Shown: positions 17,487-46,545, counted from the first letter of the stretch. The stretch: DNA of 64,000 bases from an uncultured Pseudomonadota bacterium (GCA_949297185.1 CASFRM010000004.1:8866-72865); one strand, 5' to 3'. A program made the numbers and translations. The notes: a model not told the origin generated them from the sequence alone.

Positions 17487-18230
17487 ATGATTGGACAATT
17501 TGTTAAAATAATTTACACAAAAGGTTTTATGCCTAAAGCTGTAGCGACTTTGTGCACCGCAGGTTTTCTTATGTATTCAATTCCCACATTTGCCGCTACG
17601 ACACCAGCATCGACCGAACCTGGTTGTGGCAAACTAGGATACAGTAACACTCTTGAGCCAGAGGATTGTCACAACAAATACTTCACTTGTCCGCTAAATT
17701 CCTCATATATAAAATGCGATGAAATGGCCGAAATTGGAGATATAAAATACTCAGAAAAGAGTTATGACCACGATGGATGGTACCTATGCAATGGACGACA
17801 AACCCGAAATGAAACGAGTTTACTTGTACCGATAGGGAGCAAGCTAAGTGCCATTCTTATTGAAAGAGGCTTCTCTGTTCCTCTCGTAATAAAACTCCCT
17901 GGCAGTTCTACCGGACAACAAACCGAGCAGGTTGCTGTACTCCCCAACTATCTTGGCACATTTCTCAGCGGATTCGGGACCTCCTCTTATAACAGTAAAG
18001 ACAGTAACACTAAAACTTCGCCTCTCCAAACAGGTAGAGTAGGAAGCCATACTCACTCCTTTCCCATCTACCAGTTTCAAGGATATGGCAAACACGAAGG
18101 AAACTGGGGAGGTTCAACTAATGTAACTCGTCTGGTTACTGGCCAACCAACAATCAGCAACAATAGCGGTACTGATACATGCCCGTTCCGTATAGGATTG
18201 TACCCATTTATTTATGCCGGAACCCAATAG
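17487..18230 (+). CDS. S1: secreted Cys-module plus phage-tail-collar-like domain protein, small form
   Basis: Signal peptide ...FLMYSIPTFAA. Cys module CGKLGY..C..YFTCPLNSSYIKCD, then GDIKYS..GWYLCNG..LPNYLGTFLSGFG..GSHTHSF..CPFRIGLYPFIYAG. This is the most divergent of the four S copies. An alternative start is M15 (17529). Confidence 0.8.
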   Translation: MIGQFVKIIYTKGFMPKAVATLCTAGFLMYSIPTFAATTPASTEPGCGKLGYSNTLEPEDCHNKYFTCPLNSSYIKCDEMAEIGDIKYSEKSYDHDGWYLCNGRQTRNETSLLVPIGSKLSAILIERGFSVPLVIKLPGSSTGQQTEQVAVLPNYLGTFLSGFGTSSYNSKDSNTKTSPLQTGRVGSHTHSFPIYQFQGYGKHEGNWGGSTNVTRLVTGQPTISNNSGTDTCPFRIGLYPFIYAGTQ

Positions 18231-18245
18231 ACAGGGAGAGCTACC

Positions 18246-19478
18246 ATGACACAATACAATATAGCACTTTTCAGTCTCATCTTTACTCTAACAATTCCTC
18301 TGCAATCGCAAGCATTGAGCTGTAAACAAACTCCGCCGCAATGTTCTAGTTACAACTACAAATACACATCCTGTCCCGGAGAATACGTCGCTTGCCCGTT
18401 CGACACCTCTCTCAAACAATGCGACAACGAAGCTTTGAGTAAAGACTTTAAATTTGCGATAAACAGCGGCGGAAATGGCTGGAACCAAGCCAACTCTTCC
18501 ACTCACTATCCCAATTACAGCGGAGCATTTATTGTTGGTGTGGCCTCATCCTCAAATTATTGTGGCACATCAGTAAATTCCTACGCCAATCCAACTGTCG
18601 GCAAACACTCCCATAAAAGCGAATCTAGCACCTATTATTGGCTAACTCTTGCTAATTTAAGCCGAGAAAAAGCTAGTGGCAGCGCATTTAAATCATTTTG
18701 TTCAGACACCTCCAATTTCAAACATACTGAAAACACAATCTCCACTACCGCCACTGGTACAAAAGCCACGACTTCAGAAACCAGACCCGGTAACTTTGCT
18801 GTCGATGGATATTTCTATTCGTATCCCTTCAACGAAAAAACAACTCAGGCAACAATTCCCTCCAGCAAACCGTCATGCACAACTCTAGGGTACAAGAACA
18901 AAGCCTCAGACTGCCCCGGTAGTTATATCACCTGTCCTTTTGACGATGCTGCGGTAATGTGCGATATGCAAGCCAAAGCCGGAGAAATAAAATTTTCATT
19001 AAAATTCGAAGGCACTTCCGGTGATCATAATGGATGGCTACTATGTGACGGAAGGAGGCTTGCCTCAATAGATGGCGGAAAATATGCGAATTCCGAATTA
19101 AAAACCATACTTAGCAACAATGGATTCGGAGCCAATCTTCCAAACTATCAAGGCGAGTTCCTTCGCATGAAGGGAACCAGCCCTTACAATACATCTTACA
19201 AATCAGCAACCAGCTATGCAACAAGACAATATGATGGAATTTCAGGACATACACACACCGTTAATTTTAACGTAAGTAAATTTGACGGAGATAGAACTTG
19301 CGGACAAAACGATGGTAATGACATGACAAAACCATATAGCGTCCCTACAGCCATCTCACCAGATAGAACAAGTGCAATAGGAGGCAGAACCGAACCTGAT
19401 GAAATCACGACCACTACTCGTCCACCCAATTTTGCGGCCTTTATATACATATACTCAGGGAAATTAGTCCAAAACTAA
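18246..19478 (+). CDS. L1: secreted two-unit Cys-module plus tail-collar-like protein, large form
   Basis: Signal peptide ..IPLQSQA|LSC. Unit 1: C..C..YKYTSCPGEYVACPFDTSLKQCD, DFKFA, KHSHK, ETRPGNFAVDGYFYSY. Unit 2: CTTLGY..DCPGSYITCPFDDAAVMCDMQAKAGEIKFS..GWLLCDG..LPNYQGEFLRMKG..GHTHT..RPPNFAAFIYIYSGKL. Lies 15 nt after S1 with a GGGAGAG RBS. Confidence 0.85.
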   Translation: MTQYNIALFSLIFTLTIPLQSQALSCKQTPPQCSSYNYKYTSCPGEYVACPFDTSLKQCDNEALSKDFKFAINSGGNGWNQANSSTHYPNYSGAFIVGVASSSNYCGTSVNSYANPTVGKHSHKSESSTYYWLTLANLSREKASGSAFKSFCSDTSNFKHTENTISTTATGTKATTSETRPGNFAVDGYFYSYPFNEKTTQATIPSSKPSCTTLGYKNKASDCPGSYITCPFDDAAVMCDMQAKAGEIKFSLKFEGTSGDHNGWLLCDGRRLASIDGGKYANSELKTILSNNGFGANLPNYQGEFLRMKGTSPYNTSYKSATSYATRQYDGISGHTHTVNFNVSKFDGDRTCGQNDGNDMTKPYSVPTAISPDRTSAIGGRTEPDEITTTTRPPNFAAFIYIYSGKLVQN

Positions 19479-19509
19479 TAAAAATATACAAAACAAAAAT
19501 ACAAGTTTT

Positions 19510-19529
19510 TTATTATTTTTTAATATATT
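19510..19529 (+). promoter_or_regulatory. S-gene upstream motif, S2 copy
   Basis: TTATTATTTTTTAATATATT compares with the S4 copy TTATCTTTTTTTTAATATATT on its coding strand. It ends 48 nt upstream of the S2 ATG. Confidence 0.35.
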
Positions 19530-19577
19530 CAGTATATAAAACAGATATTAAAACTAATTTTAAGCGGAGGCTCCTCC

Positions 19578-20267
19578 ATGATTGCATTCATAAAAAACAC
19601 AATTAACATCAAGAACACATTGTTTGTAATAAGTGCAATGTGCTCCATAATATTGTCTCTAAAAGAAACAAGTGCTGCCCAAGTACCGGCCTCCACTCCA
19701 CCTTCATGCGCTGATTTAAAATACACCACGAAAAAAACTGACTCATGGAAGTGTTATGATAAATATTTTAGTTGTCCGTTAGATCCGAATTACATCAAAT
19801 GCGACCGCATGGCCAAAGTCGGCGATATTAAATACACCAAATCAGCCACCGCCAACAAAGGCTGGCTACTGTGTGATGGCTCAACATACGATGCTACAAA
19901 ATACAGTGAATTAAAAAATTTAATCGGGCAAAAATTTGGAAACAGCGGATACAAACTCCCCAACTACATCGGCGTGTTTTTAAGAGGGGCTGGAAGCCAA
20001 CGAGTTGGTGGTACAACATACACAGCAAATTCAACATTCTATACTATCCAAGAAAGTGATGTAAAAGCACACAATCATTCCTACATAAGTCACTATTTCA
20101 ATGTTACCCGCGTAAAAGAAGGTGATGGTACATGGAACGGATCTTCAGATATTATAAAACCCTCTACAGGCAGAGCCAGAATGGATGCCAGTGGCAGTAA
20201 CGAGACCTGCCCTATGAGAGTGGGATTATATCCATACATCTATGCCGGTGAACCAGCTAAAAAATAA
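19578..20267 (+). CDS. S2: secreted Cys-module plus tail-collar-like protein, small form
   Basis: Signal peptide ..LKETSAA|Q. CADLKY..WKCYDKYFSCPLDPNYIKCD, then GDIKYT..GWLLCDGSTYDATKYSELKNLIGQKFG..YKLPNYIGVFLRGAG. HNH at 20070-20078. C-terminus CPMRVGLYPYIYAG. Confidence 0.85.
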   Translation: MIAFIKNTINIKNTLFVISAMCSIILSLKETSAAQVPASTPPSCADLKYTTKKTDSWKCYDKYFSCPLDPNYIKCDRMAKVGDIKYTKSATANKGWLLCDGSTYDATKYSELKNLIGQKFGNSGYKLPNYIGVFLRGAGSQRVGGTTYTANSTFYTIQESDVKAHNHSYISHYFNVTRVKEGDGTWNGSSDIIKPSTGRARMDASGSNETCPMRVGLYPYIYAGEPAKK

Positions 20268-20281
20268 AGAAGGAGATAGAA

Positions 20282-21499
20282 ATGAAAAAGATATATTTAA
20301 CATTTTTAGGTTTAGCTATACTTCTTCCTTGCCAAACCAAAGCAATAGATTGCGCCCCAAAGCCCAATACTACATGCACCTCCTATGGCTATATCCACAA
20401 CGGATGTCCCGGCAATTTTGTTTCTTGTCCCTTTGACACCAACTTTAAAACTTGTGATGAAGAAGCATATAAAGATGATTTCAAATTTGCCATAGGTAAT
20501 GTCAACAGTTTCTGGACAAAAGCTAATAACGCCTCAAACAGTGCCAATAACGACTACAGTGCACTGTTCATTGTTGGAGCACAAAAAAATAATTATTCAC
20601 TTACCAAATGTGCAACATATGTTAACACCATAAACACAACTAGCACATACAAAAGCCACACACATAACGGTGTAACTGTTGCAAAAGGATCCGCATATCT
20701 AGGAAAAAGAAGAAACGCCGGCGGCGGTGGATACAAAGCCTATTGCCAAAAAGAATATGATGGCAGTGTTTATGATAAACCATTATACACATCGACAACA
20801 GGAATTGGTGGTAATGACAGTGAGACTGCTCCTGTAAATTATGCGGTTGATGGTTATTTTTATACATACACACCTTTTGTGTGGAACGAAAAACAGGCAG
20901 CATTATCGCAGACCTTGCAAAAATGCTCATTTTTTGGCTACAATGACACCATATCCGATTGCCCCGGTGATTACGTTGTATGTCCATTTGATAAAACTGC
21001 AGTAATGTGTGATATGGAAGCTCAAGCCGGAGAAATAAAGTTTTCCTTACAGACCGATGATCATGACGGTTGGTTGCTCTGCAATGGTAGATCACTGGGC
21101 AACGCTTCATTAGCCAAATACAACAACTCAGAATTAGCAGATATTTTGCGCAGTGCAGGTTTTACTGGCACATTTAACTATGCTGTGCTTCCAAACTACC
21201 AAGGAATGTTTTTAAGACTAAAAGGCAAGTCAAGAAGCCTAGGTATTTACTCATCCTCGAACTACAAAACTGCACAACCGGATCGCCTTAAAACCCATAG
21301 CCACACATATTATGATGGAAACATTATAAAAAAACAGTGCGACCAAAATAAAGGAAAAGGAGGCGATTTTGAATATGTAAATTCACCAAATATGGCTGAA
21401 GGTGGTACAATATATTTTGAAACAACTGGCTCTGAATCGCGTCCGCCAAACTATTCAGCCAACATATTTATCTATACTGGCAAATTAAATGTAGATTAA
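20282..21499 (+). CDS. L2: secreted two-unit Cys-module plus tail-collar-like protein, large form
   Basis: Signal peptide ..LLPCQTKA|IDC. Unit 1: CPGNFVSCPFDTNFKTCD, DFKFA, SHTHN, ETAPVNYAVDGYFYTY. Unit 2: CSFFGY..DCPGDYVVCPFDKTAVMCDMEAQAGEIKFS..GWLLCNG..LPNYQGMFLRLKG..THSHT..RPPNYSANIFIYTGKL. Lies 14 nt after S2 with an AAGGAG RBS. Confidence 0.85.
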   Translation: MKKIYLTFLGLAILLPCQTKAIDCAPKPNTTCTSYGYIHNGCPGNFVSCPFDTNFKTCDEEAYKDDFKFAIGNVNSFWTKANNASNSANNDYSALFIVGAQKNNYSLTKCATYVNTINTTSTYKSHTHNGVTVAKGSAYLGKRRNAGGGGYKAYCQKEYDGSVYDKPLYTSTTGIGGNDSETAPVNYAVDGYFYTYTPFVWNEKQAALSQTLQKCSFFGYNDTISDCPGDYVVCPFDKTAVMCDMEAQAGEIKFSLQTDDHDGWLLCNGRSLGNASLAKYNNSELADILRSAGFTGTFNYAVLPNYQGMFLRLKGKSRSLGIYSSSNYKTAQPDRLKTHSHTYYDGNIIKKQCDQNKGKGGDFEYVNSPNMAEGGTIYFETTGSESRPPNYSANIFIYTGKLNVD

Positions 21500-23503: not shown

Positions 23504-26500
23504 TCATCGACTATTCCGACCTTTTTTTATAATATTTTCTTTTCTCATGTTTTTTGTTTGCGGAACATCAGCCTTTTCTCTTGAAAAATCAAGTACTTTC
23601 ACCTCTTCATTGCTTATTTGTTCCCTAACTTCTTTTATATCTTCCAAATCTCTTGTAACGGTATAAGTCTGACCGGTTTTTTTAACACTTATACTGCCGG
23701 TATTTTCTTTTAGTATTCTTTCATCTTCTTTTTTCTGCACTTCTTCATAATATTTTTGCTCAGCCGCCTTAATTTTAGGCTCGACATAATCATCCAACTT
23801 TTTAATTTTCTCATTAATTTCTTCAACACCGCTTTGCATCTGCTTAAAGACACCAACTAATTCTTCATTGCGTTTTTGCAAATCAACGCTAGACACCTTA
23901 TTTTTATCAAAATTTTGGTTATTCTGTGTATCTTCATTCAACTTTTCTAAATTTTTAACGGCATTGTCTATATCTTGTTTAAGCATAACAAACTGTGTGT
24001 CATTATCAGTTTTGTATTCGCTCAAAGATTTGCTTAATCTTTCATTATAGGCATCAAGTTTTGCATTATAACCAAACAAGACCTGTTTTAGCGCATTATG
24101 AACTTCAACAACTTTTGCATACTCTTTGTCATTTTGCTTTAACAAATCCGCCTTATAAATTTCATCCCGACGGCCCGAGTAAATTTCAATCTGTTTTATT
24201 GCCTTTTGATTAGCTGCCTTTAATTTTTCCACAGTGTTGCTGTCAAATTTTTCATTTTCCGTACTATCAACTACATTAATCAATTCGGCTAAAGTATTAG
24301 CAATATCTTGTATCAGCACATTATACTTATTTACATTTTCCGGATTAATTGCTTTGCTCATTTTATCTTGTATATCTTTTTCCAATTTTTCTCTGGTACT
24401 CAACACTAAGTCATCGGCAGTTTTGCGTTGTTCGTTAACCAACCCCTTCCAATAATTCATTTCAGCCTCTACTGCCGCCTCTTTAGCTTCTTTCATTTGT
24501 TCTTCTCTGGCCTGATATAATTTAAGCAATCCGTCAATATTAATGTCCACATCAGGTTTATCCATACTGTTTTTCAGCATTACCGTAAACTCAGGTAAAT
24601 ATTTTGGTTCATTATATTTCACATTCAAGATTGCATCTAATGTCCAATCATTCAAATTTCCTTCAGCCGAAACATTTACATTTACATTGCGATTTTGCAT
24701 TAAAGTGTTAGCCAGACTGAATTTGCCATCTTCCACGATTATTCTTGACGATACTTTATCAAACAACGTATTTCCTGAAGCGACATTTGATTTTACCACC
24801 TCTGATAAGCCATCAGATTTATTACGACTTACCAAATCATTATATATTGTGCCAAGATTTATACCGCTTACATCTGCAACAGCTGCATTAAATTCAACTT
24901 TTCCTTTAAGATTATCAATAAAACTTTCTTCGCTGTCCGCTTTTGAACTCAAATCAAAACGAGTACTAAATTTACCGCTCCTTATTCCAAAGACTTTTCC
25001 TCCTAAAGTAAAATTCTCCGCCTTTGCTTCTGGTATACTACCACTAATTGTTACGGTAGGGTCTTTTGCCGTATACAAAGTAACTGCACCGTTCACAGGT
25101 GTTTCATTGTATGAAGCGACAAAGTTCATTACATTAATTGTATTTTCGGTTGTTTCAAAATCTGCCTTAACATTATTAAACATATGATTTTTATAAGATA
25201 ATTCAGCAATATCCAGCGAAGTTTTCAAATTAATCTTGTTATAAGGAGCATAATCAATTTTGTCTTTGCTCCAAAACGGCTTCGGCAAGAATGATATGTC
25301 CAAATTCTGTTGAGGAGCGGATATTAAAGATGTCTTTGTTTGCGGAACAAATTTATCAAGTTCTAACTTATTGATAGTCAAGTTACCGATAAAACCTAAT
25401 CTCTCACCCATTTTTTCATAATTCAGATGGCCAGAAGCAGCAGTATAACCAATATTGGTTTCCAGATTATTGATTGCTGCAGCACTAGAATTTCCTGACA
25501 AATTAAACTTTGCATTAAAAGGACCTAATGCCTTAACTGCAGGCTCGTAATCAGCACCAAATTCCGCAATCATCGTAGTAAAATCGGGGTGTTTTACCTC
25601 TATGTCAGCATTATAATCTGTACTTATATCACCTTTTACCACTGTCCCTTTATAGCTAAGTTCCAACCGCCCCAAATCAAGTTTTGTATTCAATGCCATA
25701 TTATTAAATCCACCATTAACAGCTCCGGATAAAGACATTGTACCAAACTTTTTATAATCTAATTTAGGCACATCAAAACCAAACTTATCAATAAAAGTTG
25801 CTACATTTTTACTTGAAACCAAGTATTGTAAATCAGTAACCTCTGGAGTTATTCCAAAACCGGAAACTTTACCACTCAATTCAATCGCCGTATCAGCAAC
25901 CTGCCCTATATTAAGTTTTTCTACGGTTATTGAGCCATTAAGCAAATTTCCTTTAAACTCCACCTTTTCAAAAGGTGTCGCTTCGTATATAATCAAATTG
26001 GACTTTACATCTAATATTAAATCAAAATCATTCAACATTGCCAGCTTAACAAAACGATAATTCATTCTATCGCTAAAACTTTTATTTTTCTCTTCTTCAG
26101 GCAATGAACTGATATAATTATCAAGATTCAAACTATCAGCATTAATCACTATCATCATATCTTTTCTATCGCCCAATATTATTCCGGCTTCACCGGACAG
26201 CACGCTCTTATCAAGGGTCAAATTGTACGGCGATATTTGTATTTTATCAAAATTTCCTGCAATTTTTGCTTTTGCATCCAATTTCTTATAAACCGAACTA
26301 ATAGATGTTTTAGGCGCAATACCGAGCCAGTTCAGGGTTTGCATCAAATCTTCCGATGTTGCCTCTGTATCAAACTGATAATACAACTCCCCTTCCGAAG
26401 GATAAACAACGCCCTTAGCCTTAAAATCTGTATTTCCTGGCAAAGTTATAGCAAAATTATCAATTGTCATGGTATCATCATAAAGATTGATACTTGCCTC

Positions 26501-27613
26501 CAAATTTTTCATTCCCTGCCCCTGATGCATAGCTCGCAAAGCTTTAACACTGAGTGTTATATCAGCTGGATATTCCGGCACAAAGGCTTCATCCTCATAT
26601 TTTTCCTTAAAATTATCCCACATTTTCGCTAACGGCGCTACATCAAGATCTGTAAAATTAAATTCACCGGTAACTTCTTTTGTATCATTTTTGAGAGCAA
26701 CAACATTAACTGTTCCAGCCCCTTGAGTATCACCGTATTTAATAACCATATTCGAAATTTTGGTATTTTTCGGATTTACCGCCACATCAAAACCCAAGGC
26801 TAAAGGAATATCGTTATACTCTGTAGGCACATTTACATCAGAAATATTGGCATTAATAAAATCACTTATTTTTTTTGATTCAACAATAGCGTTTCCGCTC
26901 AAAGATTTATTTGCGGTTTGGAAAGAACCGTCAAACCTGACATAACTTTCCGAAACAGGATGAGTAACAACCATATTTAAGGTTGTAGGCATTGTCTCAG
27001 ACAATTTTCCTATTGAAATTGCAAAACCTTCAGGAGAATTTCCTTTCAAATAATTTCCTTCGATTCTAAACGGGCCAAAAATGCTTTGAGCAAATACTTC
27101 ACCGTTAAGATTAGTCAGTTGCAAGCTTACATCCGATTCCGGGGCCTCAAAATTTACCGTCGCATTTTTCAAGCTGACACTGTTTAATACGGTATCTGCT
27201 TCTTCCATCATTTGTCGTTGGTCTTGTGTCAAATCATCTTGCCAACTAAAACCGTTTTCACCCCATAATATATTGATATTAACCCCATCAAGTGTCATTT
27301 TCTTTACATGGAATTCACCTTTTAACAATGGCAGCAAAGACAACTCGGCTACGATATTATTAACTTCCATCAAAGGTGTTTCATTTTTTTCTTGAGAATT
27401 ATATATTTTTGCATTGCTGGCATTAAGATACGGCGACGGCAAGATCTCAAAGCTCAAACGCCCCTCAAAATCAACTGATTTTCCGGTCAGATTGTACACT
27501 TGTTCGGCAATTTTATCTTTATGCTGATTCCAATCAATATTGGTTACATAAAGAACAAATCCGCCGGCCGCAAGCATCAAAAAAACAACTAAACCCAGAA
27601 TAAATTTTTTCAC
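23504..27613 (-). CDS. AsmA-family outer-membrane biogenesis or lipid-transfer protein with a long C-terminal coiled-coil extension
   Basis: N-terminal TM anchor KKFILGLVVFLMLAAGGFVLY followed by AsmA-like beta-rich sequence. The GTG start at 27613 is preferred (GGAGGGA RBS 7 nt upstream) over the ORF-track TTG at 27631. Confidence 0.7.
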   Translation of the reverse strand: MKKFILGLVVFLMLAAGGFVLYVTNIDWNQHKDKIAEQVYNLTGKSVDFEGRLSFEILPSPYLNASNAKIYNSQEKNETPLMEVNNIVAELSLLPLLKGEFHVKKMTLDGVNINILWGENGFSWQDDLTQDQRQMMEEADTVLNSVSLKNATVNFEAPESDVSLQLTNLNGEVFAQSIFGPFRIEGNYLKGNSPEGFAISIGKLSETMPTTLNMVVTHPVSESYVRFDGSFQTANKSLSGNAIVESKKISDFINANISDVNVPTEYNDIPLALGFDVAVNPKNTKISNMVIKYGDTQGAGTVNVVALKNDTKEVTGEFNFTDLDVAPLAKMWDNFKEKYEDEAFVPEYPADITLSVKALRAMHQGQGMKNLEASINLYDDTMTIDNFAITLPGNTDFKAKGVVYPSEGELYYQFDTEATSEDLMQTLNWLGIAPKTSISSVYKKLDAKAKIAGNFDKIQISPYNLTLDKSVLSGEAGIILGDRKDMMIVINADSLNLDNYISSLPEEEKNKSFSDRMNYRFVKLAMLNDFDLILDVKSNLIIYEATPFEKVEFKGNLLNGSITVEKLNIGQVADTAIELSGKVSGFGITPEVTDLQYLVSSKNVATFIDKFGFDVPKLDYKKFGTMSLSGAVNGGFNNMALNTKLDLGRLELSYKGTVVKGDISTDYNADIEVKHPDFTTMIAEFGADYEPAVKALGPFNAKFNLSGNSSAAAINNLETNIGYTAASGHLNYEKMGERLGFIGNLTINKLELDKFVPQTKTSLISAPQQNLDISFLPKPFWSKDKIDYAPYNKINLKTSLDIAELSYKNHMFNNVKADFETTENTINVMNFVASYNETPVNGAVTLYTAKDPTVTISGSIPEAKAENFTLGGKVFGIRSGKFSTRFDLSSKADSEESFIDNLKGKVEFNAAVADVSGINLGTIYNDLVSRNKSDGLSEVVKSNVASGNTLFDKVSSRIIVEDGKFSLANTLMQNRNVNVNVSAEGNLNDWTLDAILNVKYNEPKYLPEFTVMLKNSMDKPDVDINIDGLLKLYQAREEQMKEAKEAAVEAEMNYWKGLVNEQRKTADDLVLSTREKLEKDIQDKMSKAINPENVNKYNVLIQDIANTLAELINVVDSTENEKFDSNTVEKLKAANQKAIKQIEIYSGRRDEIYKADLLKQNDKEYAKVVEVHNALKQVLFGYNAKLDAYNERLSKSLSEYKTDNDTQFVMLKQDIDNAVKNLEKLNEDTQNNQNFDKNKVSSVDLQKRNEELVGVFKQMQSGVEEINEKIKKLDDYVEPKIKAAEQKYYEEVQKKEDERILKENTGSISVKKTGQTYTVTRDLEDIKEVREQISNEEVKVLDFSREKADVPQTKNMRKENIIKKGRNSR

Positions 27614-27721
27614 TTTGCCATCCCTCCGCAACTTGTTATGAGAGTGTCGATAAATATATTTTGCAATCTTTGAAATCTCCGTATATTATACATCATAAAA
27701 TTAAAAAAACATTTAATTTAT

Positions 27722-38331: not shown

Positions 38332-38589
38332 ATGAGTGAAGAGGAGAAAACAGAGGTAGGCGGCATCGCAGCAGACCGCCTGCGTTCATTAATCGAACGC
38401 ATAGAAAGACTTGAAGAAGAAAAGAAAGCAATTTCTTCTGATATCCGTGATATTTTTGCCGAAGCCAAATCAGCAGGATTCGATGTTAAGATAATGCGTG
38501 CGGTAATAAAATTACGCAAGATGAATGCCGCCGACCGCGACGAACAAGAATTTTTGCTTGATACATACAAAAAAGCCTTGGATATATAG
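38332..38589 (+). CDS. gapR: GapR (DUF2312/UPF0335) nucleoid-associated protein
   Basis: LRSLIERIERLEEEKKAISSDIRDIFAEAKSAGFDVKIMRAVIKLRKM closely resembles Caulobacter GapR as I remember it (LKSIIDRVERLEVEK...VYAEAKGNGFDVKVLKKVV). Confidence 0.9.
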   Translation: MSEEEKTEVGGIAADRLRSLIERIERLEEEKKAISSDIRDIFAEAKSAGFDVKIMRAVIKLRKMNAADRDEQEFLLDTYKKALDI

Positions 38590-38605
38590 GATATATAAAT
38601 AACAC

Positions 38606-38641
38606 AAAAAAAATCCCACAGCAAAAACTGTGGGATTTTTT
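38606..38641. terminator. Bidirectional terminator shared by gapR (+) and L3 (-)
   Basis: ATCCCACAG-caaaaa-CTGTGGGAT (38613-38636) is flanked by A8 on the left and T6 on the right. Confidence 0.8.
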
Positions 38642-38648
38642 GCGCCCG

Positions 38649-39851
38649 CTAATCCTTCAAATTTAGTTTTCCTGAATAAATAAACATATAAGCTGCCATG
38701 TTTTTAGGCCTTAATTCATCTCCAACCGAGGTACCTGTAGCAGAAGATGTAGTACCTTCAGCAGAAGATGTCGTAATACTGTTCAAACAAAAAGATGAAT
38801 TTCCACCAGAGTATGTAAAACTAGAACTTCCCGTGCCGCAAGATTTCACTGAATTTGCCGGATACTGTGACGTTAACGAATGCTTGTGATCCGGAACCAC
38901 AGAACCTGAAACACTTAAAGTATCTCCCGTAGTTATCTTAAGAAATAATGCTTGTCCATTAGGAATGCTCGTTTTACTTTTATTTTTTAGGATTTTACCC
39001 AATTCAGAATTTTCATATCCACTGCCCGACAAAGCGCGTCCGTTACAGAGCACCCAACCATTGTGATCAACAGGTACCGATGCAAATTTTATTTCACCAG
39101 CTTTTGCCTCCATATCACACATAACCATATTTTCATTAAATGGACATCTTACAAATTCGCCCGGACAATTTTGCTCCTTATCTTTATATCCTAAACTATC
39201 ACAAGTTGGAGTAACACTTGGGGTACTGGCTTGTCCAGAGGTTTTAGTTGAAGTTACATAATTATAAATGCACCCCTTTACTGTCATACTTGCTAAACTA
39301 CCATCACCGGTACCTAAACTGGACGTAGACACAGACAACGCACTTTCACTAGCATTGACACACGGATAAACAGAACTTCCATAATTTGCGGGTGAAAGAT
39401 TATCCCACAAAAGCGCCGTAAACGGTCCCACTTCAACATCTCCACTATGAGAATGTTCAAGAACACCCGTTGCATCCTTAACCACCTTTGCTACATTTAT
39501 TCCTACACCGCATTTTCCACTTGCTTTATCTGCACTAATTTTTGCTATTCCAACAACATATGAATTATTTGCATCTTTATCGCCTCCGGTAGTGCCATAC
39601 CCTTGTACCTCACTCCAACCAGTTCCCTCACAGTTATCAACCGCAAATTTGAAATCACCTTTACTGCCTTCCTTATCACATTGTAAAAAAGTCTTATCAA
39701 ACGGACATGCAGTAAAATTGCCCGGGCATCCGGAATATATATATCCAAAATCCTTACACGAAACTTTAGGCATATCACCACATTCCAGCGCCGATGATTG
39801 CCACGGAAGAAGAACTGCCACACCTACAACCAATAAATATTTTTTCATCAT
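38649..39851 (-). CDS. L3: secreted two-unit Cys-module plus tail-collar-like protein, large form
   Basis: Signal peptide ..LLPWQSSA|LEC. Unit 1: CPGNFTACPFDKTFLQCD, DFKFA, EHSHS. Unit 2: CDSLGY..NCPGEFVRCPFNENMVMCDMEAKAGEIKFA..GWVLCNG..DHKHS..RPKNMAAYMFIYSGKL. Lies 15 nt after S3 with a GGAGG RBS. Confidence 0.85.
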   Translation of the reverse strand: MMKKYLLVVGVAVLLPWQSSALECGDMPKVSCKDFGYIYSGCPGNFTACPFDKTFLQCDKEGSKGDFKFAVDNCEGTGWSEVQGYGTTGGDKDANNSYVVGIAKISADKASGKCGVGINVAKVVKDATGVLEHSHSGDVEVGPFTALLWDNLSPANYGSSVYPCVNASESALSVSTSSLGTGDGSLASMTVKGCIYNYVTSTKTSGQASTPSVTPTCDSLGYKDKEQNCPGEFVRCPFNENMVMCDMEAKAGEIKFASVPVDHNGWVLCNGRALSGSGYENSELGKILKNKSKTSIPNGQALFLKITTGDTLSVSGSVVPDHKHSLTSQYPANSVKSCGTGSSSFTYSGGNSSFCLNSITTSSAEGTTSSATGTSVGDELRPKNMAAYMFIYSGKLNLKD

Positions 39852-39866
39852 TTTCTCCTCCTTGTT

Positions 39867-40766
39867 TTACTTTTTAGCCGGAGTTCCGGCGTAAATATAA
39901 GGATACAAACCTATTCTATACGGACAATAATCTGACGCTGAGCCGTCAACAGCACCAACCTTATATGTAGTTCTCGCTGTTGTTGATTTTACACCACTAG
40001 TATACCAGCTACCACCTCCTGGTGTATAACTAAAAGTTGAACACTTATATGTTTTAAGTCCAACTTTGTGAGTATGTGCAGGTATAGCCTGCTCTTGAAT
40101 ATTGGTTAATGCAGCTGATCTATATGTAACACTCCCGATTTTTTGCTCACCAAAACCTCGCAAAAACACTCCGATTAAATTAGGAACATGACACTCATCG
40201 CCTGTATTCCGTCCCCTATAACAGGTAGCTAAAGAAGCCTCTTTTAACTCTGGATATTTTTCATGATCAAATATGCTCCCATCACACAATAACCATCCCT
40301 TTTCAGCACTTCCAGAAGTGCTATATTTTATATCCCCGGCTCTTGCAACACGATCGCATTTAATATAATTTGCATCAAAAGGACAAGTAAAGTACATATC
40401 ATAACATTTCCAAGAATTTTCTTTAGTCATATTATAGCCCAAATCACTGCAGCTAATATCCGCTATTTCTGTATTAGTACCCGTGACTTGTGTACTTGTC
40501 TGACCATTAAAATTGCCCAATTCCAAATCTACATCAACCACCCGCTCAAAGTCTCCTCCGGTTGAACCGGTTCCTATCCCCGTTCCAACAGTCCACTTAC
40601 CATCATCTTTTCCCCAATCTGCATCACCTAATTCCGTACTTGGTCTGTTTATGTCCTCACCGATATTAGAAATTGCATATGCCTCATCGGCCACGATTGT
40701 TTTTCCTAAAAAACAAACCCAGCCCAGCAAGATAACATTTATTATACCTTTCGAATATCTGAGCAT
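39867..40766 (-). CDS. S3: secreted Cys-module plus tail-collar-like protein, small form with an extra N-terminal G/T/D-rich segment
   Basis: Signal peptide ..TIVADEAYA. About 70 extra residues (GDADWGKDDGKWTVGTGIGTGSTGG...), then CSDLGYNMTKENSWKCYDMYFTCPFDANYIKCD, GDIKYS..GWLLCDG..VPNLIGVFLRGFG..AHTHK..CPYRIGLYPYIYAG. Confidence 0.85.
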   Translation of the reverse strand: MLRYSKGIINVILLGWVCFLGKTIVADEAYAISNIGEDINRPSTELGDADWGKDDGKWTVGTGIGTGSTGGDFERVVDVDLELGNFNGQTSTQVTGTNTEIADISCSDLGYNMTKENSWKCYDMYFTCPFDANYIKCDRVARAGDIKYSTSGSAEKGWLLCDGSIFDHEKYPELKEASLATCYRGRNTGDECHVPNLIGVFLRGFGEQKIGSVTYRSAALTNIQEQAIPAHTHKVGLKTYKCSTFSYTPGGGSWYTSGVKSTTARTTYKVGAVDGSASDYCPYRIGLYPYIYAGTPAKK

Positions 40767-40827
40767 AATAAAATCTCCTTATTTAGTGAAATTCAAAACC
40801 TTATACTAACACTCTAAAATAAATTAG

Positions 40828-40843
40828 TTAAAAAAAAGATAAC
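40828..40843 (-). promoter_or_regulatory. S-gene upstream motif, S3 copy
   Basis: Coding-strand GTTATCTTTTTTTTAA lies 61 nt upstream of the S3 ATG and is identical over 16 nt to the S4 copy. Confidence 0.4.
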
Positions 40844-40935
40844 TAAAGATTCTTCCGCGCCCAAAGCCTTTCCATACTAATATCATACTACTTTTTCGAT
40901 ATTTTTTATGTTACACTTTTATTAATTTACATAAC

Positions 40936-40974
40936 GACAAAGGCAGAAAGTCTTTCCGAATTTCTGCCTTTGTC
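40936..40974 (-). terminator. Strong hairpin after L4 (putative terminator between the two pairs of locus B)
   Basis: Perfect 14-bp inverted repeat GACAAAGGCAGAAA-(11 nt)-TTTCTGCCTTTGTC, starting 7 nt after the L4 stop. No clear U-tract follows on the minus strand. Confidence 0.5.
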
Positions 40975-40980
40975 ATATTT

Positions 40981-42129
40981 TTACAGTTTACCCGAGTAAA
41001 TATATATATAAGCCGAATAGTTTGGTGGACGAGTTTCTGTACCTGCATAAGCCGTTTCTTGCGAACCAGATGATGAAAGAGCCGTAGAAGTAACAGGATT
41101 ATAATAATTCTTCGAAGAACCATTATTTTGATTACAAGAACTTGTTGGCTGTCTTCCTACCACCTGAACACTATGACTGTGAGGAGCCAAATCATCAGAC
41201 TGCACAGCCGTATATGATGAAGCCGATGCATAAGAAAAATAACTACCCTTCATTCGCAAAAACATCGCAGAATAGTCCGGAAGATTGCTACCAAAGCCGT
41301 TATTACTTAATATTGTTTTCAACTCAGAATTTGCATATTTTCCGCTTAATATTGAAGACAAACTTCTGCCATCGCATTTTAACCAGCCATTATGATCAGA
41401 AGATTTAAGCGAAAACTTAATCTCTCCGGCTTTAGCTTCCATATCACACATTACTGCCGTGGTATCAAAAGGACATTTAACATACCCGCCCGGACAATCT
41501 GCAACTTTATCAACATATCCCATAGTGGCACAAGACGGCTTGGTTGATGGTAACGATTTTTGAAGTGTAGTTTTTATGGAATCCGTATAACTATAAAAAT
41601 ACCCATCAACAGCCTGATTTACCGGCCTTGTTTCCGCACTGCCGGCACTGGTCGATGTAACACCTTTACTATAAGTCATTACCCCGCAAAATCCGGAGTA
41701 ACGCGCGTTAGATGCGTTATTTCTCGAAAGAACAAAAGCACTTGCGCCAAAAACTGATGAAGCCCCATGAGTATGAGACTGCATTACCGGAGTTTTACTG
41801 GCATTGACAGTAGAAGAACATCTTATCGTACTTGATGAAGCCCCAACAATAAACGCCCCGCTATAATTTTTCGATGCCGAAGAAGTGTTGGCTTTGCTCC
41901 ACCCTGTTCCACCATTATTCAAAGAAAACTTAAAATCATTATTAAAAGCTTCTCTGTCACATTGCCTAAACGAAGTATCAAAAGGACAGGCCATATATCC
42001 TCCCGGACAAGAAGCATATTTGTACCCATAATACACACAATTAGGGACATCCTTAGAGCAAGTCAACGCCATCACCTGAAGCGGAAACAAAACCAAATAA
42101 GATAAAACCATCAATCCTTGTTTTTTCAT
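40981..42129 (-). CDS. L4: secreted two-unit Cys-module plus tail-collar-like protein, large form
   Basis: Signal peptide ..LFPLQVMA|LTC. Unit 1: CPGGYMACPFDTSFRQCD, DFKFS, SHTHG, ETRPVNQAVDGYFYSY. Unit 2: CATMGY..DCPGGYVKCPFDTTAVMCDMEAKAGEIKFS..GWLKCDG..LPDYSAMFLRMKG..PHSHS..RPPNYSAYIYIYSGKL. Lies 11 nt after S4 with a GGAGGGG RBS. Confidence 0.85.
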   Translation of the reverse strand: MKKQGLMVLSYLVLFPLQVMALTCSKDVPNCVYYGYKYASCPGGYMACPFDTSFRQCDREAFNNDFKFSLNNGGTGWSKANTSSASKNYSGAFIVGASSSTIRCSSTVNASKTPVMQSHTHGASSVFGASAFVLSRNNASNARYSGFCGVMTYSKGVTSTSAGSAETRPVNQAVDGYFYSYTDSIKTTLQKSLPSTKPSCATMGYVDKVADCPGGYVKCPFDTTAVMCDMEAKAGEIKFSLKSSDHNGWLKCDGRSLSSILSGKYANSELKTILSNNGFGSNLPDYSAMFLRMKGSYFSYASASSYTAVQSDDLAPHSHSVQVVGRQPTSSCNQNNGSSKNYYNPVTSTALSSSGSQETAYAGTETRPPNYSAYIYIYSGKL

Positions 42130-42140
42130 GTTATCCCCTC

Positions 42141-42833
42141 CTAATTGTTTGTTGCAGGCTGCCCGGCATAGATAAATGCGTTTAACCCTATTCTATAAGG
42201 ACAAGTATAATCACCCGAACCAGACGCTGACACGATCGGAACAAACGAGGTTGCAACTGCAACAGATGAATTACCGGAATATCTACCTTCTTGCTTAGTT
42301 GTATAGCTATACGTGTACTTTGTAAAGCTATGATTATGATATTTACAACTAGAGGATTGCAACTGGTTTATTCCTAGAGCGCTATAAGTTGTAGTAATCG
42401 AACCAGATGTAATTTTTTTAGAACCGAAACCTCTCAAAATAATTCCTCTATAATCCGGCAACTTAGGTGCAGATGAAGTTCCTCCGAATTTTGTTGAAAT
42501 GACCGAATAAAGCTCCGGATATTTTGACGGGCTATAAGTCGTACCATCACACAGCAACCATCCAAGACTCTCGGTAGATGACTTTGAATATTTGATATCC
42601 CCGACTTCTGCATACTTATCACACCTGATATAATTAGCATCCAAAGGGCAAATAAAATATTTATCATAACACTTCCACGAATTTGCCTTGGTTAAATTAT
42701 AGCCCAAATCACTGCAGCTTGGTTTTGTCGGTGCAGCACATACAGACGAAAACGGATAAACACTAATCAACAGCAGCACACACGCTATGCAACACCTAAA
42801 AAAAGCATCTTTCTGACTAACCATCTTCTTCAT
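42141..42833 (-). CDS. S4: secreted Cys-module plus tail-collar-like protein, small form
   Basis: Signal peptide ..YPFSSVCA|AP. CSDLGYNLTKANSWKCYDKYFICPLDANYIRCD, GDIKYS..GWLLCDGTTYSPSKYPELYSVISTKFGG..PKLPDYRGIILRGFG..YHNHS..CPYRIGLNAFIYAG. Confidence 0.85.
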   Translation of the reverse strand: MKKMVSQKDAFFRCCIACVLLLISVYPFSSVCAAPTKPSCSDLGYNLTKANSWKCYDKYFICPLDANYIRCDKYAEVGDIKYSKSSTESLGWLLCDGTTYSPSKYPELYSVISTKFGGTSSAPKLPDYRGIILRGFGSKKITSGSITTTYSALGINQLQSSSCKYHNHSFTKYTYSYTTKQEGRYSGNSSVAVATSFVPIVSASGSGDYTCPYRIGLNAFIYAGQPATNN

Positions 42834-42895
42834 AACAACATCTCCGTTTTTTAACCCATAATCATAACAACAACTTTTTCATAAACTAAAATATA

Positions 42896-42911
42896 TTAAA
42901 AAAAAGATAAC
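42896..42911 (-). promoter_or_regulatory. S-gene upstream motif, S4 copy
   Basis: Coding-strand GTTATCTTTTTTTTAA followed by TATATT lies 62 nt upstream of the S4 ATG. Confidence 0.4.
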
Positions 42912-43022: not shown

Positions 43023-43574
43023 CTAATTCTTTGTCACAACAACCATTGCTTCTCTTAATATTCTATCGTGAATCATATATCCGGTTTGCACTTCTGCAAT
43101 AATAGTACCTGCCGGTTTAGATTTATCCTCAACTTCTTGTATTACCTGATGAAAATTAGGATCAAACACCGTTCCCATAATATCCATTTTATGAATATCA
43201 AACTTATTGAACACCTTGGTCAAATCATTTTGTGTGAGTTTCACGCCTTCCAACAGACCTTTGCACGCATCATCACCGTTTGAAGCATCTATTGCCCTTT
43301 GCAGATTATCGGCAACTGCCAACAAATCCTTAGCGAAAGATGATATTGCATATTTATTATTTTTTTCAATTTCTTGCTGACATCTTTTTTTAGTATTTTC
43401 AAGCTCGGCATAAGCCCGCAAATAGTCTTCCTTGAGCTTTTGATTTTCGGCATTCAAAGCATCAACATCAACTTTTTCATCTGCGGATTCCACATCTTCA
43501 GACACTTCTTGTGGATTCCCTTCTTCATTCATTTCCAAATTTTCTTCATCTAAATTTTTCTTATTTTTAGTCAT
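43023..43574 (-). CDS. grpE: Nucleotide exchange factor GrpE
   Basis: Acidic N-terminus, coiled coil (LKEDYLRAYAELENTKKR), and C-terminal beta domain (FDPNFHQVI...GYMIHDRILREAMVVV). Confidence 0.95.
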   Translation of the reverse strand: MTKNKKNLDEENLEMNEEGNPQEVSEDVESADEKVDVDALNAENQKLKEDYLRAYAELENTKKRCQQEIEKNNKYAISSFAKDLLAVADNLQRAIDASNGDDACKGLLEGVKLTQNDLTKVFNKFDIHKMDIMGTVFDPNFHQVIQEVEDKSKPAGTIIAEVQTGYMIHDRILREAMVVVTKN

Positions 43575-45834: not shown

Positions 45835-46545
45835 ATGCGTGCATCAAATCGTCAAAACAATCAACTTCGTAATATAGAATTTATCACCAACTTTAATCCC
45901 TATGCCGAAGGCTCTTGCTTGGTTAAATACGGCAACACTCATGTTATCTGCACGGCCTCGGTTGATGAAAAGGTTCCCTCTTGGCTCAAAGGGCAAGAAA
46001 AAGGCTGGATTACCGCCGAATATGCCATGCTCCCAAGGTCGACCCAAACCCGCGTCCAAAGAGAAAGCAAAAAGCCCTCCGGCCGCACCCAAGAGATTCA
46101 AAGACTTATCGGACGTTCATTGCGTTCTGTAGTTGACTTAAGCAAAATGCAAGAAATCTGCATAACTATTGATTGCGATGTTATTCAGGCCGACGGCGGC
46201 ACCAGAGTTGCCTCAATTTCCGGCGGCTTTATCGCCCTATACATAGCAATTCAAAAGCTATTGCAAGAAGGCAAAATTTCCGAAAATCCCATCAGAGAAT
46301 TTGTTGCCGCGGTTTCCTGTGATATTTATGAAGGCGAAACAATTATTGATGTAGACTACAATGAAGATTCCAACTCTCAAGTAGATATGAATTTTATTAT
46401 GACCGAAAGCGGTAAGATTGTCGAAATTCAAGGCACTGCCGAGGGCGAACCATTCAGCGAAGAAGAATTTAATCAACTTTTGCAAATGGGCAAACAAGGT
46501 ATCAAAGAAATCATTGCCAAACAAAAGGAAGCACTGTCATGTTAA
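45835..46545 (+). CDS. rph: Ribonuclease PH
   Basis: MRASNRQNNQLRNIEF..., YAEGSCLVKYGNTHVIC, DCDVIQADGGTRVASISG. Confidence 0.95.
   Translation: MRASNRQNNQLRNIEFITNFNPYAEGSCLVKYGNTHVICTASVDEKVPSWLKGQEKGWITAEYAMLPRSTQTRVQRESKKPSGRTQEIQRLIGRSLRSVVDLSKMQEICITIDCDVIQADGGTRVASISGGFIALYIAIQKLLQEGKISENPIREFVAAVSCDIYEGETIIDVDYNEDSNSQVDMNFIMTESGKIVEIQGTAEGEPFSEEEFNQLLQMGKQGIKEIIAKQKEALSC

Follow-up and report, generated by a model that had tools for sequence, protein, structure and literature searches.

Paired tail-collar proteins with export signals and strain-variable heads at a chromosomal locus of an uncultured Pseudomonadota bacterium

Genes of locus B

We analysed a stretch of 64,000 nucleotides (nt) from an uncultured Pseudomonadota bacterium, an alphaproteobacterium (GCA_949297185.1 CASFRM010000004.1:8866-72865), referred to below as the window. 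Positions 38649-42833, here called locus B, carry four genes on the minus strand, arranged in two pairs (S4-L4 and S3-L3) in each of which the gene of a small protein (S) precedes that of a large one (L). Judged from their sequences, the products are most likely exported binders of the lectin or adhesin type whose specificity varies between strains. A further two pairs, on the plus strand, make up locus A of the same window (17487-21499; S1 17487-18230, L1 18246-19478, S2 19578-20267 and L2 20282-21499). All eight genes share one architecture and they are the only carriers in the window of the cysteine (Cys) module described below, which bears out the opinion of a first-pass annotation that the two loci are the same system.

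The four open reading frames (ORFs) of locus B, the gaps of 11 nt (S4-L4) and 15 nt (S3-L3), the 214-bp spacer between L4 and S3, and the flanking grpE and gapR genes all lie where that annotation had placed them. An AGGAG-type ribosome-binding site was found inside each S-L gap. Lengths are in amino acids (aa), pTM is the predicted template-modelling score of an AlphaFold2 (AF2) model, and the Cys modules were placed by alignment.

42141-42833, minus strand: S4, ORF of 230 aa; PF07484 at 8e-14, T4 gp12 (1ocy) at 1e-8, PHROG tail collar fibre; signal peptide, one Cys module, tail-collar/gp12-like domain, HNH codons at 42330-42338, C-terminal CPYRIGL..IYAG
42609-42734, minus strand: Cys module of S4, C-x2-LGY-x8-C-x6-CP-x7-CD
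40981-42129, minus strand: L4, ORF of 382 aa; phrog_327 tail protein at residues 232-375, AF2 pTM 0.66; signal peptide, two tandem units of Cys module plus collar/head, HTH at 41767-41775, HSH at 41173-41181, C-terminus ETRPPNYSAYIYIYSGKL
41947-42057 and 41434-41550, minus strand: Cys modules of L4
39867-40766, minus strand: S3, ORF of 299 aa; PF07484 at 6.5e-7; signal peptide, 72-residue G/T/D-rich extension (40458-40673), Cys module, collar/head with HTH (40068-40076)
40344-40469, minus strand: Cys module of S3
38649-39851, minus strand: L3, ORF of 400 aa, the most divergent L (nearest relative P0034, 47%); one HxH motif per unit, HSH at 39447-39455 and HKH at 38880-38888
39666-39776 and 39105-39221, minus strand: Cys modules of L3

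The second HxH motif of L3, HKH, was misaligned by MAFFT. Among the signature motifs previously said to recur at both loci, the Cys module, G[DE]IK[YF], HxH and the class-specific C-termini (CP.R.GLYP.IYAG in S, ETRPPNY.A.I.IY.GKL in L) were recovered, whereas GW.LCDG departs from the literal form in some copies, being GWLKCDG in L4 and GWVLCNG in L3; the general form is GW.LC[DN]G.

Export signals and the Cys module

Read from the sequence, the N-termini of the S and L proteins show the layout of a signal peptide, with a basic n-region followed by a hydrophobic core and then an AxA-like cleavage site, and the proteins appear to be Sec-exported. The host has an outer membrane (it is diderm), since TolB, AsmA and MlaE are also encoded in the window. 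Lipoprotein anchoring was considered and rejected, as T, S, D or E before the first cysteine of L breaks the lipobox and the AxA sites fit signal peptidase I.

Each gp12-like domain is preceded by a Cys module of about 35 residues, C-x2-LGY-x(3-8)-C-x(5-6)-CP-x7-C[DE], in which the four cysteines are invariant. The window contains 12 such modules, one per S and two per L. Thus S consists of a single unit of module plus domain and L of two such units in tandem, joined by a linker of about 15 residues. A comparison of the module with Pfam gave no match. It was found in 212 clusters among 1.8 billion representatives, and it is fused elsewhere to Collar (41/131 representatives), Lcl_C (PF07603, 7/131) and T4 Gp10_C (3/131). 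Lcl is an adhesin. The Cys module is thus a general N-terminal module of exported proteins whose head domains are of the trimeric phage-fibre or adhesin type.

On a UMGS241 contig (L015:4401-7025) an 874-aa ORF carries the Cys module ahead of Lcl_C. A 271-aa exported protein (L007:4274-5089, minus strand) has one Cys module followed by a Cys-rich region and lacks a collar domain; its gene is divergent from an S/L pair and adjoins two genes of no assigned function. Three L-type proteins of 525-537 aa (P0027, P0038 and P0039; L007:6001-7602 and L022:957-2570) continue beyond IYSGKLNV into an extra C-terminal extension of about 130-150 residues, which is very Cys-rich and has no family assignment.

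The extension of S3 (residues 32-103, 40458-40673) was confirmed between the signal peptide and the Cys module, and within the window it occurs in S3 only. It is not unique to S3 in a wider sense, as it recurs in relatives. The motif LGD[AS][DE]WG.D[DE].KW is common to the S3 extension and to residues 31-58 of P0004, an S protein at locus A of another metagenome-assembled genome (MAG), and a G/T-rich low-complexity stretch follows the motif in both. Between the window and strain L002 the extension differs by one residue, although the head downstream of it has been replaced.

Homology to the T4 gp12 receptor-binding domain

S4 and S3 match PF07484 (Phage Tail Collar) with 51.7 and 29.7 bits, above the curated gathering threshold of 24 bits. 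L4 and L3 give only a weak match to this family (14.5 bits), located in their C-terminal halves; the same C-terminal units match a hidden Markov model (HMM) of the S family at 1e-27 to 1e-33. In the PHROG search S4, S3 and L4 were assigned to tail collar fibre or tail fibre families, with L4 matching phrog_327 and phrog_523, and L3 had no match. Since the C-terminal units of L match the S-family HMM and L4 matches these two PHROG families, L belongs to PF07484 by transitive homology. The NCBIfam search of the S and L proteins detected no family, and the Pfam search detected nothing beyond Collar, neither Peptidase_S74 nor stalk repeats.

Residues 72-139 of S4 align with structures of the T4 short tail fibre protein gp12 (1ocy, 1pdi and 5iv5) at E = 1e-8. 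With a profile of the four S proteins the alignment includes Q-x6-HxH, and HxH falls on residues 116-118 of 1ocy, which are His445 and His447 of gp12 with a 329-residue offset from 5iv5. The C-terminal strand of S returns to the collar as it does in gp12, and the motifs GW..C.G and LP[DN].RG.F.RG are common to both. In gp12, gp37, R-pyocin fibres and phage spikes, three HxH motifs, one from each chain of the trimer, form an octahedral six-histidine Fe/Zn site on the axis (PMC6116203). Both histidines are invariant in the S set. Among 19/19 L sequences the first histidine is invariant in both motifs, while the second is invariant in the C-terminal motif and conserved in at least 90% in the N-terminal one. 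The LCDG and LP..G.FLRG motifs have disappeared from the N-terminal unit of L.

The AF2 model of S4 has a pTM of 0.29 and a confidence score (pLDDT) of 51. When the L4 model was searched against BFVD, the top matches were phage tail collar proteins, although weak, and one of them is annotated as MdpB; a Foldseek search of the same model against the PDB returned noise only (E > 2). On the sequence alignments, the core of S and L is a gp12-type receptor-binding domain that extends from the collar into the head.

Relatives, pairing and genomic context

The family is rare, with 22 S-like and 17 L-like clusters among 5.8 billion, all of which derive from assemblies of uncultured Alphaproteobacteria or Proteobacteria. 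About 14 distinct S-L pairs were recovered in related MAGs. Every recovered L has an S at most about 20 nt upstream, and every HxH-type S is directly followed by an L (about 14/14 pairs). The pairs occupy two syntenic positions, grpE...gapR and rplQ...rpoB, and this synteny holds across genomes in which rpoB is only 83-94% identical. Because homologues are found at syntenic positions in other assemblies, the ORFs are real genes and not chance ORFs. They are chromosomal and lie outside any prophage: the flanks of locus B, which also include pyk and a glgA-like gene, hold housekeeping genes only, and there are no phage genes nearby.

Distant relatives possess the Cys module and collar and lack HxH; in the two cases with context examined (2/2) they are single genes among housekeeping genes. 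A headless pair was found at the locus B position of MAG E17__bin256, as the single pair there (L014:5914-7249, CALYBC010000030), with an S of 158 aa and an L of about 282 aa. The head and HxH are gone from all three domains, namely S and the N- and C-terminal units of L, and the N-terminal unit has shrunk to about 40 aa. Reading frames, signal peptides, Cys modules and C-terminal strands all persist in the pair, and S and the C-terminal unit of L still have their collars. In the same MAG the locus A pairs are convergent (they are in tandem in the window), and an IS110-family transposase gene adjoins them (L005:6800-7759).

NCBI names the relatives "tail fiber protein" and every one of the nearest annotated families consists of phage tail proteins, as would be expected of functionless fibre remnants from a decaying prophage or tailocin. 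We disfavour this explanation as very unlikely. The ORFs are unbroken and come with signal peptides and ribosome-binding sites, their scaffold residues are conserved, the flanks are exclusively housekeeping genes, and both syntenic positions are maintained across the divergent genomes mentioned above. The absence of relatives from IMG/VR viral contigs likewise speaks against remnants; L relatives were sought in JGI metagenome contigs as well, and none was found in either collection. A component of a virion or tailocin fibre was rejected as a candidate, as the signal peptide and Cys module replace the shaft and phage structural neighbours are lacking.

Polymorphism between strains

The L002 contig, which comes from another sample, is 97.4% identical to the window from position 46000 down to 40323 and 100% identical from 38588 on. 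The interval between these segments is a polymorphic cassette.

38589-40323, minus strand: polymorphic cassette, comprising the S3 collar/head after GDIKYS and all of L3; L002 has an unalignable nucleotide allele

At the protein level the two alleles are about 45% identical in the C-terminal part of S3 and 34% identical in L3. The signal peptide, extension and Cys module of S3 together show three substitutions only. For the other pair, synonymous (dS) and non-synonymous (dN) divergence between the window and L002 was 0.23 and 0.054 in S4, and 0.15 and 0.032 in L4. The flanking glgA-like gene, grpE, the RNase PH gene and gapR had dN = 0 and dS of 0-0.04. The substitutions in S4 and L4 fall in the S4 collar/head and in the C-terminal unit of L4, and none is in a signal peptide or Cys module.

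In related species, with rpoB identity of 83-94%, the part of locus A that still aligns is confined to patches in the Cys modules and collars, at 65-87% identity. The strong variability among paralogues that had been noticed after HxH was evident in the protein alignments, where the segments flanking HxH have a mean pairwise column identity of 0.14-0.21, compared with 0.4-0.65 for the Cys modules, the collars and the C-terminal strands. The closest relative of L3, P0034 (47% identity; contigs L008/L013), is situated at the rpoB-side locus of another MAG and not between grpE and gapR. Since the closest relative of L3 sits at the other locus, alleles appear to move between the two loci.

Assembly of S and L

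We suggest that S and L probably form a 1:1 pseudo-trimer, in which one domain of S and two of L bring three HxH motifs to a single metal site. The two proteins, made 1:1 from a coupled operon, would close one pseudo-threefold gp12-like head, so that three protomer equivalents would come from two chains and the three HxH motifs would surround the metal. A short neck would be built from the three Cys modules with their disulfide bonds, and the little-conserved stretches before and after HxH would make up a distal ligand-binding surface.

Several findings point to this arrangement. The domain count is one plus two, and the domains are of near equal length (153/130/148 aa in S4/L4 and 156/146/149 aa in S3/L3). 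HxH-type S proteins are strictly linked to L. The S3 head and L3 are replaced jointly in L002, and all three heads are lost jointly in L014. Modelled alone, L4 reaches a pTM of 0.66 with only 68% of its residues ordered, which implies that its two halves pack as one rigid unit, compared with 0.29 for S4 alone. There is also a precedent in the heterotrimer of a virophage, discussed below.

The main rival, which we regard as rather unlikely, is that S and L share no head, S being a single-headed homotrimer and L a two-headed homotrimer with its heads stacked or apart, possibly a cross-linker. The operon would then simply provide joint expression of a pair of related binders, or of an adaptor together with its partner. 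Domains of the gp12 type as a rule form homotrimers, and the S relatives without HxH stand alone and must self-assemble. Moreover, S and L alleles appear in differing combinations, as L3 is closest to P0034 and S3 is not closest to the partner of P0034, and no mirror-tree signal connects S and L. Separate homotrimers are harder to reconcile with the strict adjacency of HxH-type S and L (about 14/14 pairs), with the joint swap of S head and L in L002 and with the joint loss of three heads in L014. The pTM of L alone, which implies in the model that the halves lie side by side, also tells against them. In gp12 both chain ends are at the collar, and given this geometry a 15-residue linker suits neighbouring protomers better than serially stacked heads.

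Function of the assembled heads

A lectin- or adhesin-like role is favoured because the fold is that of a receptor-binding tip, because the variable parts surround the axial metal site, and because the Cys module occurs on fibre and adhesin heads. The assembled heads would act as free or surface-associated binders, with the four pairs of the window providing four specificities. Specificity would be renewed by homologous recombination, anchored in the Cys-module/GDIKYS segment on one side and in the flanking housekeeping genes on the other, which would swap the S head and L together. With moderate confidence, we consider paired S:L heads, acting as strain-variable binders renewed by recombination, to be the best explanation of the locus as a whole. 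The first-pass annotation had suggested a repertoire of binding specificities, a reading that we regard as well motivated but putative. The fibre receptor-binding framework, the position of the variable stretches around HxH and the swapped cassette agree with that suggestion, and the dN/dS comparison among strains that it proposed does not: for whole S4 and L4 genes, compared between two strains, the ratio is about 0.2 and not above 1.

This ratio is one of several observations that weigh against the explanation offered here. The case for 1:1 assembly is inferred from domain counting, co-occurrence, pTM and one co-loss event. Divergence of S heads and of L domains was uncorrelated over 11 pairs (Spearman 0.11-0.19, not significant), and this absent mirror-tree signal argues against tight co-evolution of S and L, or else reflects saturation. 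In the AF2 monomers the head segments are modelled with pLDDT < 50, so these segments may be disordered instead of forming an intertwined head. Finally, no lipobox, barrel or known sorting signal was found in the sequences that would explain how the proteins cross, or attach to, the outer membrane.

A more specific reading, which we advance only tentatively, treats each head as a split single-chain trimer, asymmetric and with up to three binding faces. Four such heads would be exported, and exchanged between strains and loci, as a surface-recognition code. The code would be cell-encoded and strain-specific, and its targets might be host glycans, neighbours or kin.

The deep allelic divergence of the strain-specific cassettes is typical of conflict loci, and the proteins are homologous to phage receptor-binding proteins that bind lipopolysaccharide (LPS). 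The exported heads could accordingly be imagined to coat the cell's own receptor against phage adsorption, or to mark or antagonise competitors in the manner of a lectin-like bacteriocin or in kin recognition. We think such a conflict role improbable, as no toxin, immunity or defence component was detected: the PADLOC anti-phage defence models gave no match and Pfam gave only Collar. Phage genes are absent nearby, and the Cys module co-occurs with the adhesin domain Lcl_C, which is more in keeping with lectin- or adhesin-like binders.

Transcription signals and neighbouring genes

The signals around the two pairs and the flanking genes are listed here; z is the z-score of folding energy against shuffled sequence, and both flanking genes were identified with NCBIfam.

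42894-42911 (before S4) and 40826-40843 (before S3), minus strand: upstream motif GTTATCTTTTTTTTAA, an exact 16-mer
About 40934-40976, minus strand: stem-loop after L4, -25.6 kcal/mol, z -7.8
38608-38641, bidirectional: terminator hairpin of L3/gapR, z -6.0
43023-43574, minus strand: grpE
38332-38589, plus strand: gapR

The stem-loop after L4 is a probable terminator separating the two S-L units. Together with the terminator hairpin of grpE (z -7.4) and that of L3/gapR, it folds far better than shuffled sequence (z -6.0 to -7.8 for the three), which upholds both the hairpin after L4 and the bidirectional L3/gapR terminator as they had been annotated. The motif GTTATCTTTTTTTTAA is located 60-78 nt 5' of both S3 and S4, at 61-78 nt from the start in the case of S4, and the window has no further exact copy. 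With mismatches allowed the pattern is not rarer than expected by chance, so weight is placed only on the exact match at an equal position. A scan for sigma-70 promoters yielded no more sites than shuffled sequence did. The hairpins and the shared upstream 16-mer suggest two similarly controlled transcription units, S4-L4 and S3-L3.

An AsmA-family gene (1375 aa; window 23504-27631, minus strand) is located close to locus A, and such a gene is likewise found near the related loci L005 and L010. Its proximity to locus A is probably conserved synteny only.

Comparison with known systems

A search of the literature on exported tail-collar proteins in Alphaproteobacteria and on MdpB produced nothing on the S/L family. 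The domain family is already known; the exported, stalk-less cellular form, the 4-Cys module and the S(1)+L(2) architecture are not described in the literature searched. MdpB proteins (COG4675, "microcystin-dependent protein"), which are stand-alone bacterial tail-collar proteins without a known function, are one point of comparison. An MdpB-type collar is present in some Cys-module proteins (P0138, P0073 and P0081), with ...HENRMPYLALNYII. S and L differ from MdpB/COG4675 in their C-termini, their signal peptides and their arrangement in S-L pairs. In proteins with the C-terminal domain of Legionella Lcl (PF07603) the same N-terminal Cys module can precede Lcl_C; that head fold is different, and neither S nor L contains Lcl_C. 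The module, absent from Pfam, marks a wider set of exported proteins with head domains of the trimeric phage-fibre or adhesin type.

The chromosome of Bdellovibrio encodes a repertoire of mosaic adhesive trimer (MAT) fibres, trimeric adhesins that resemble phage fibres, have diversified at their tips and are presented outside the cell (PMC10769870). S and L similarly form a bacterial chromosomal repertoire of phage-fibre-like proteins. However, MAT proteins are long single-gene fibres, many of which have an S74 chaperone-peptidase, whereas S and L are of 230-400 aa, lack both stalk and S74, and are encoded in two-gene pairs with an HxH gp12-type head.

The resemblance to T4 gp12 (1OCY, 1PDI, 5IV5; PF07484) consists of sequence homology across the collar into the head, with HxH at His445/His447. 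Unlike gp12, S and L have no fibre shaft, virion or phage context, and possess a Sec signal peptide and the 4-Cys module instead. The bacterium appears to have domesticated the phage tip alone, adding an export signal and a new disulfide module, and to have kept it as a polymorphic multi-copy family at core chromosomal positions. Phage receptor-binding tips are the best-studied natural specificity modules, and the S/L scaffold might serve in the engineering of mixed-specificity binders. The family also offers a testable handle on the surface biology of uncultured, apparently gut-associated Alphaproteobacteria, of which almost nothing is known.

A further difference from gp12, which has three identical chains, is that the domains of S and L are divided 1+2 between two genes. 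Should the 1+2 assembly prove real, it would be a compact case of a homotrimer turned asymmetric by gene duplication and fusion, with parallels in the PCNA and β-clamp rings and in double jelly-roll capsid proteins. Among tail-collar heads assembled from different chains, the nearest precedent is that of the virophage DSLV2, in which three consecutively encoded PF07484 proteins co-purify as a 1:1:1 heterotrimer and bind LPS (PMC12724248); the corresponding assembly of S and L is one that we infer. As in this tripartite tail, three PF07484 protomer equivalents are encoded consecutively at each S-L pair, by genes 11-15 nt apart. Whereas DSLV2 uses three genes and a virus particle, the S/L system has two genes, with two of the protomers fused in L, and its products are cellular, carry export signals and are equipped with Cys modules.

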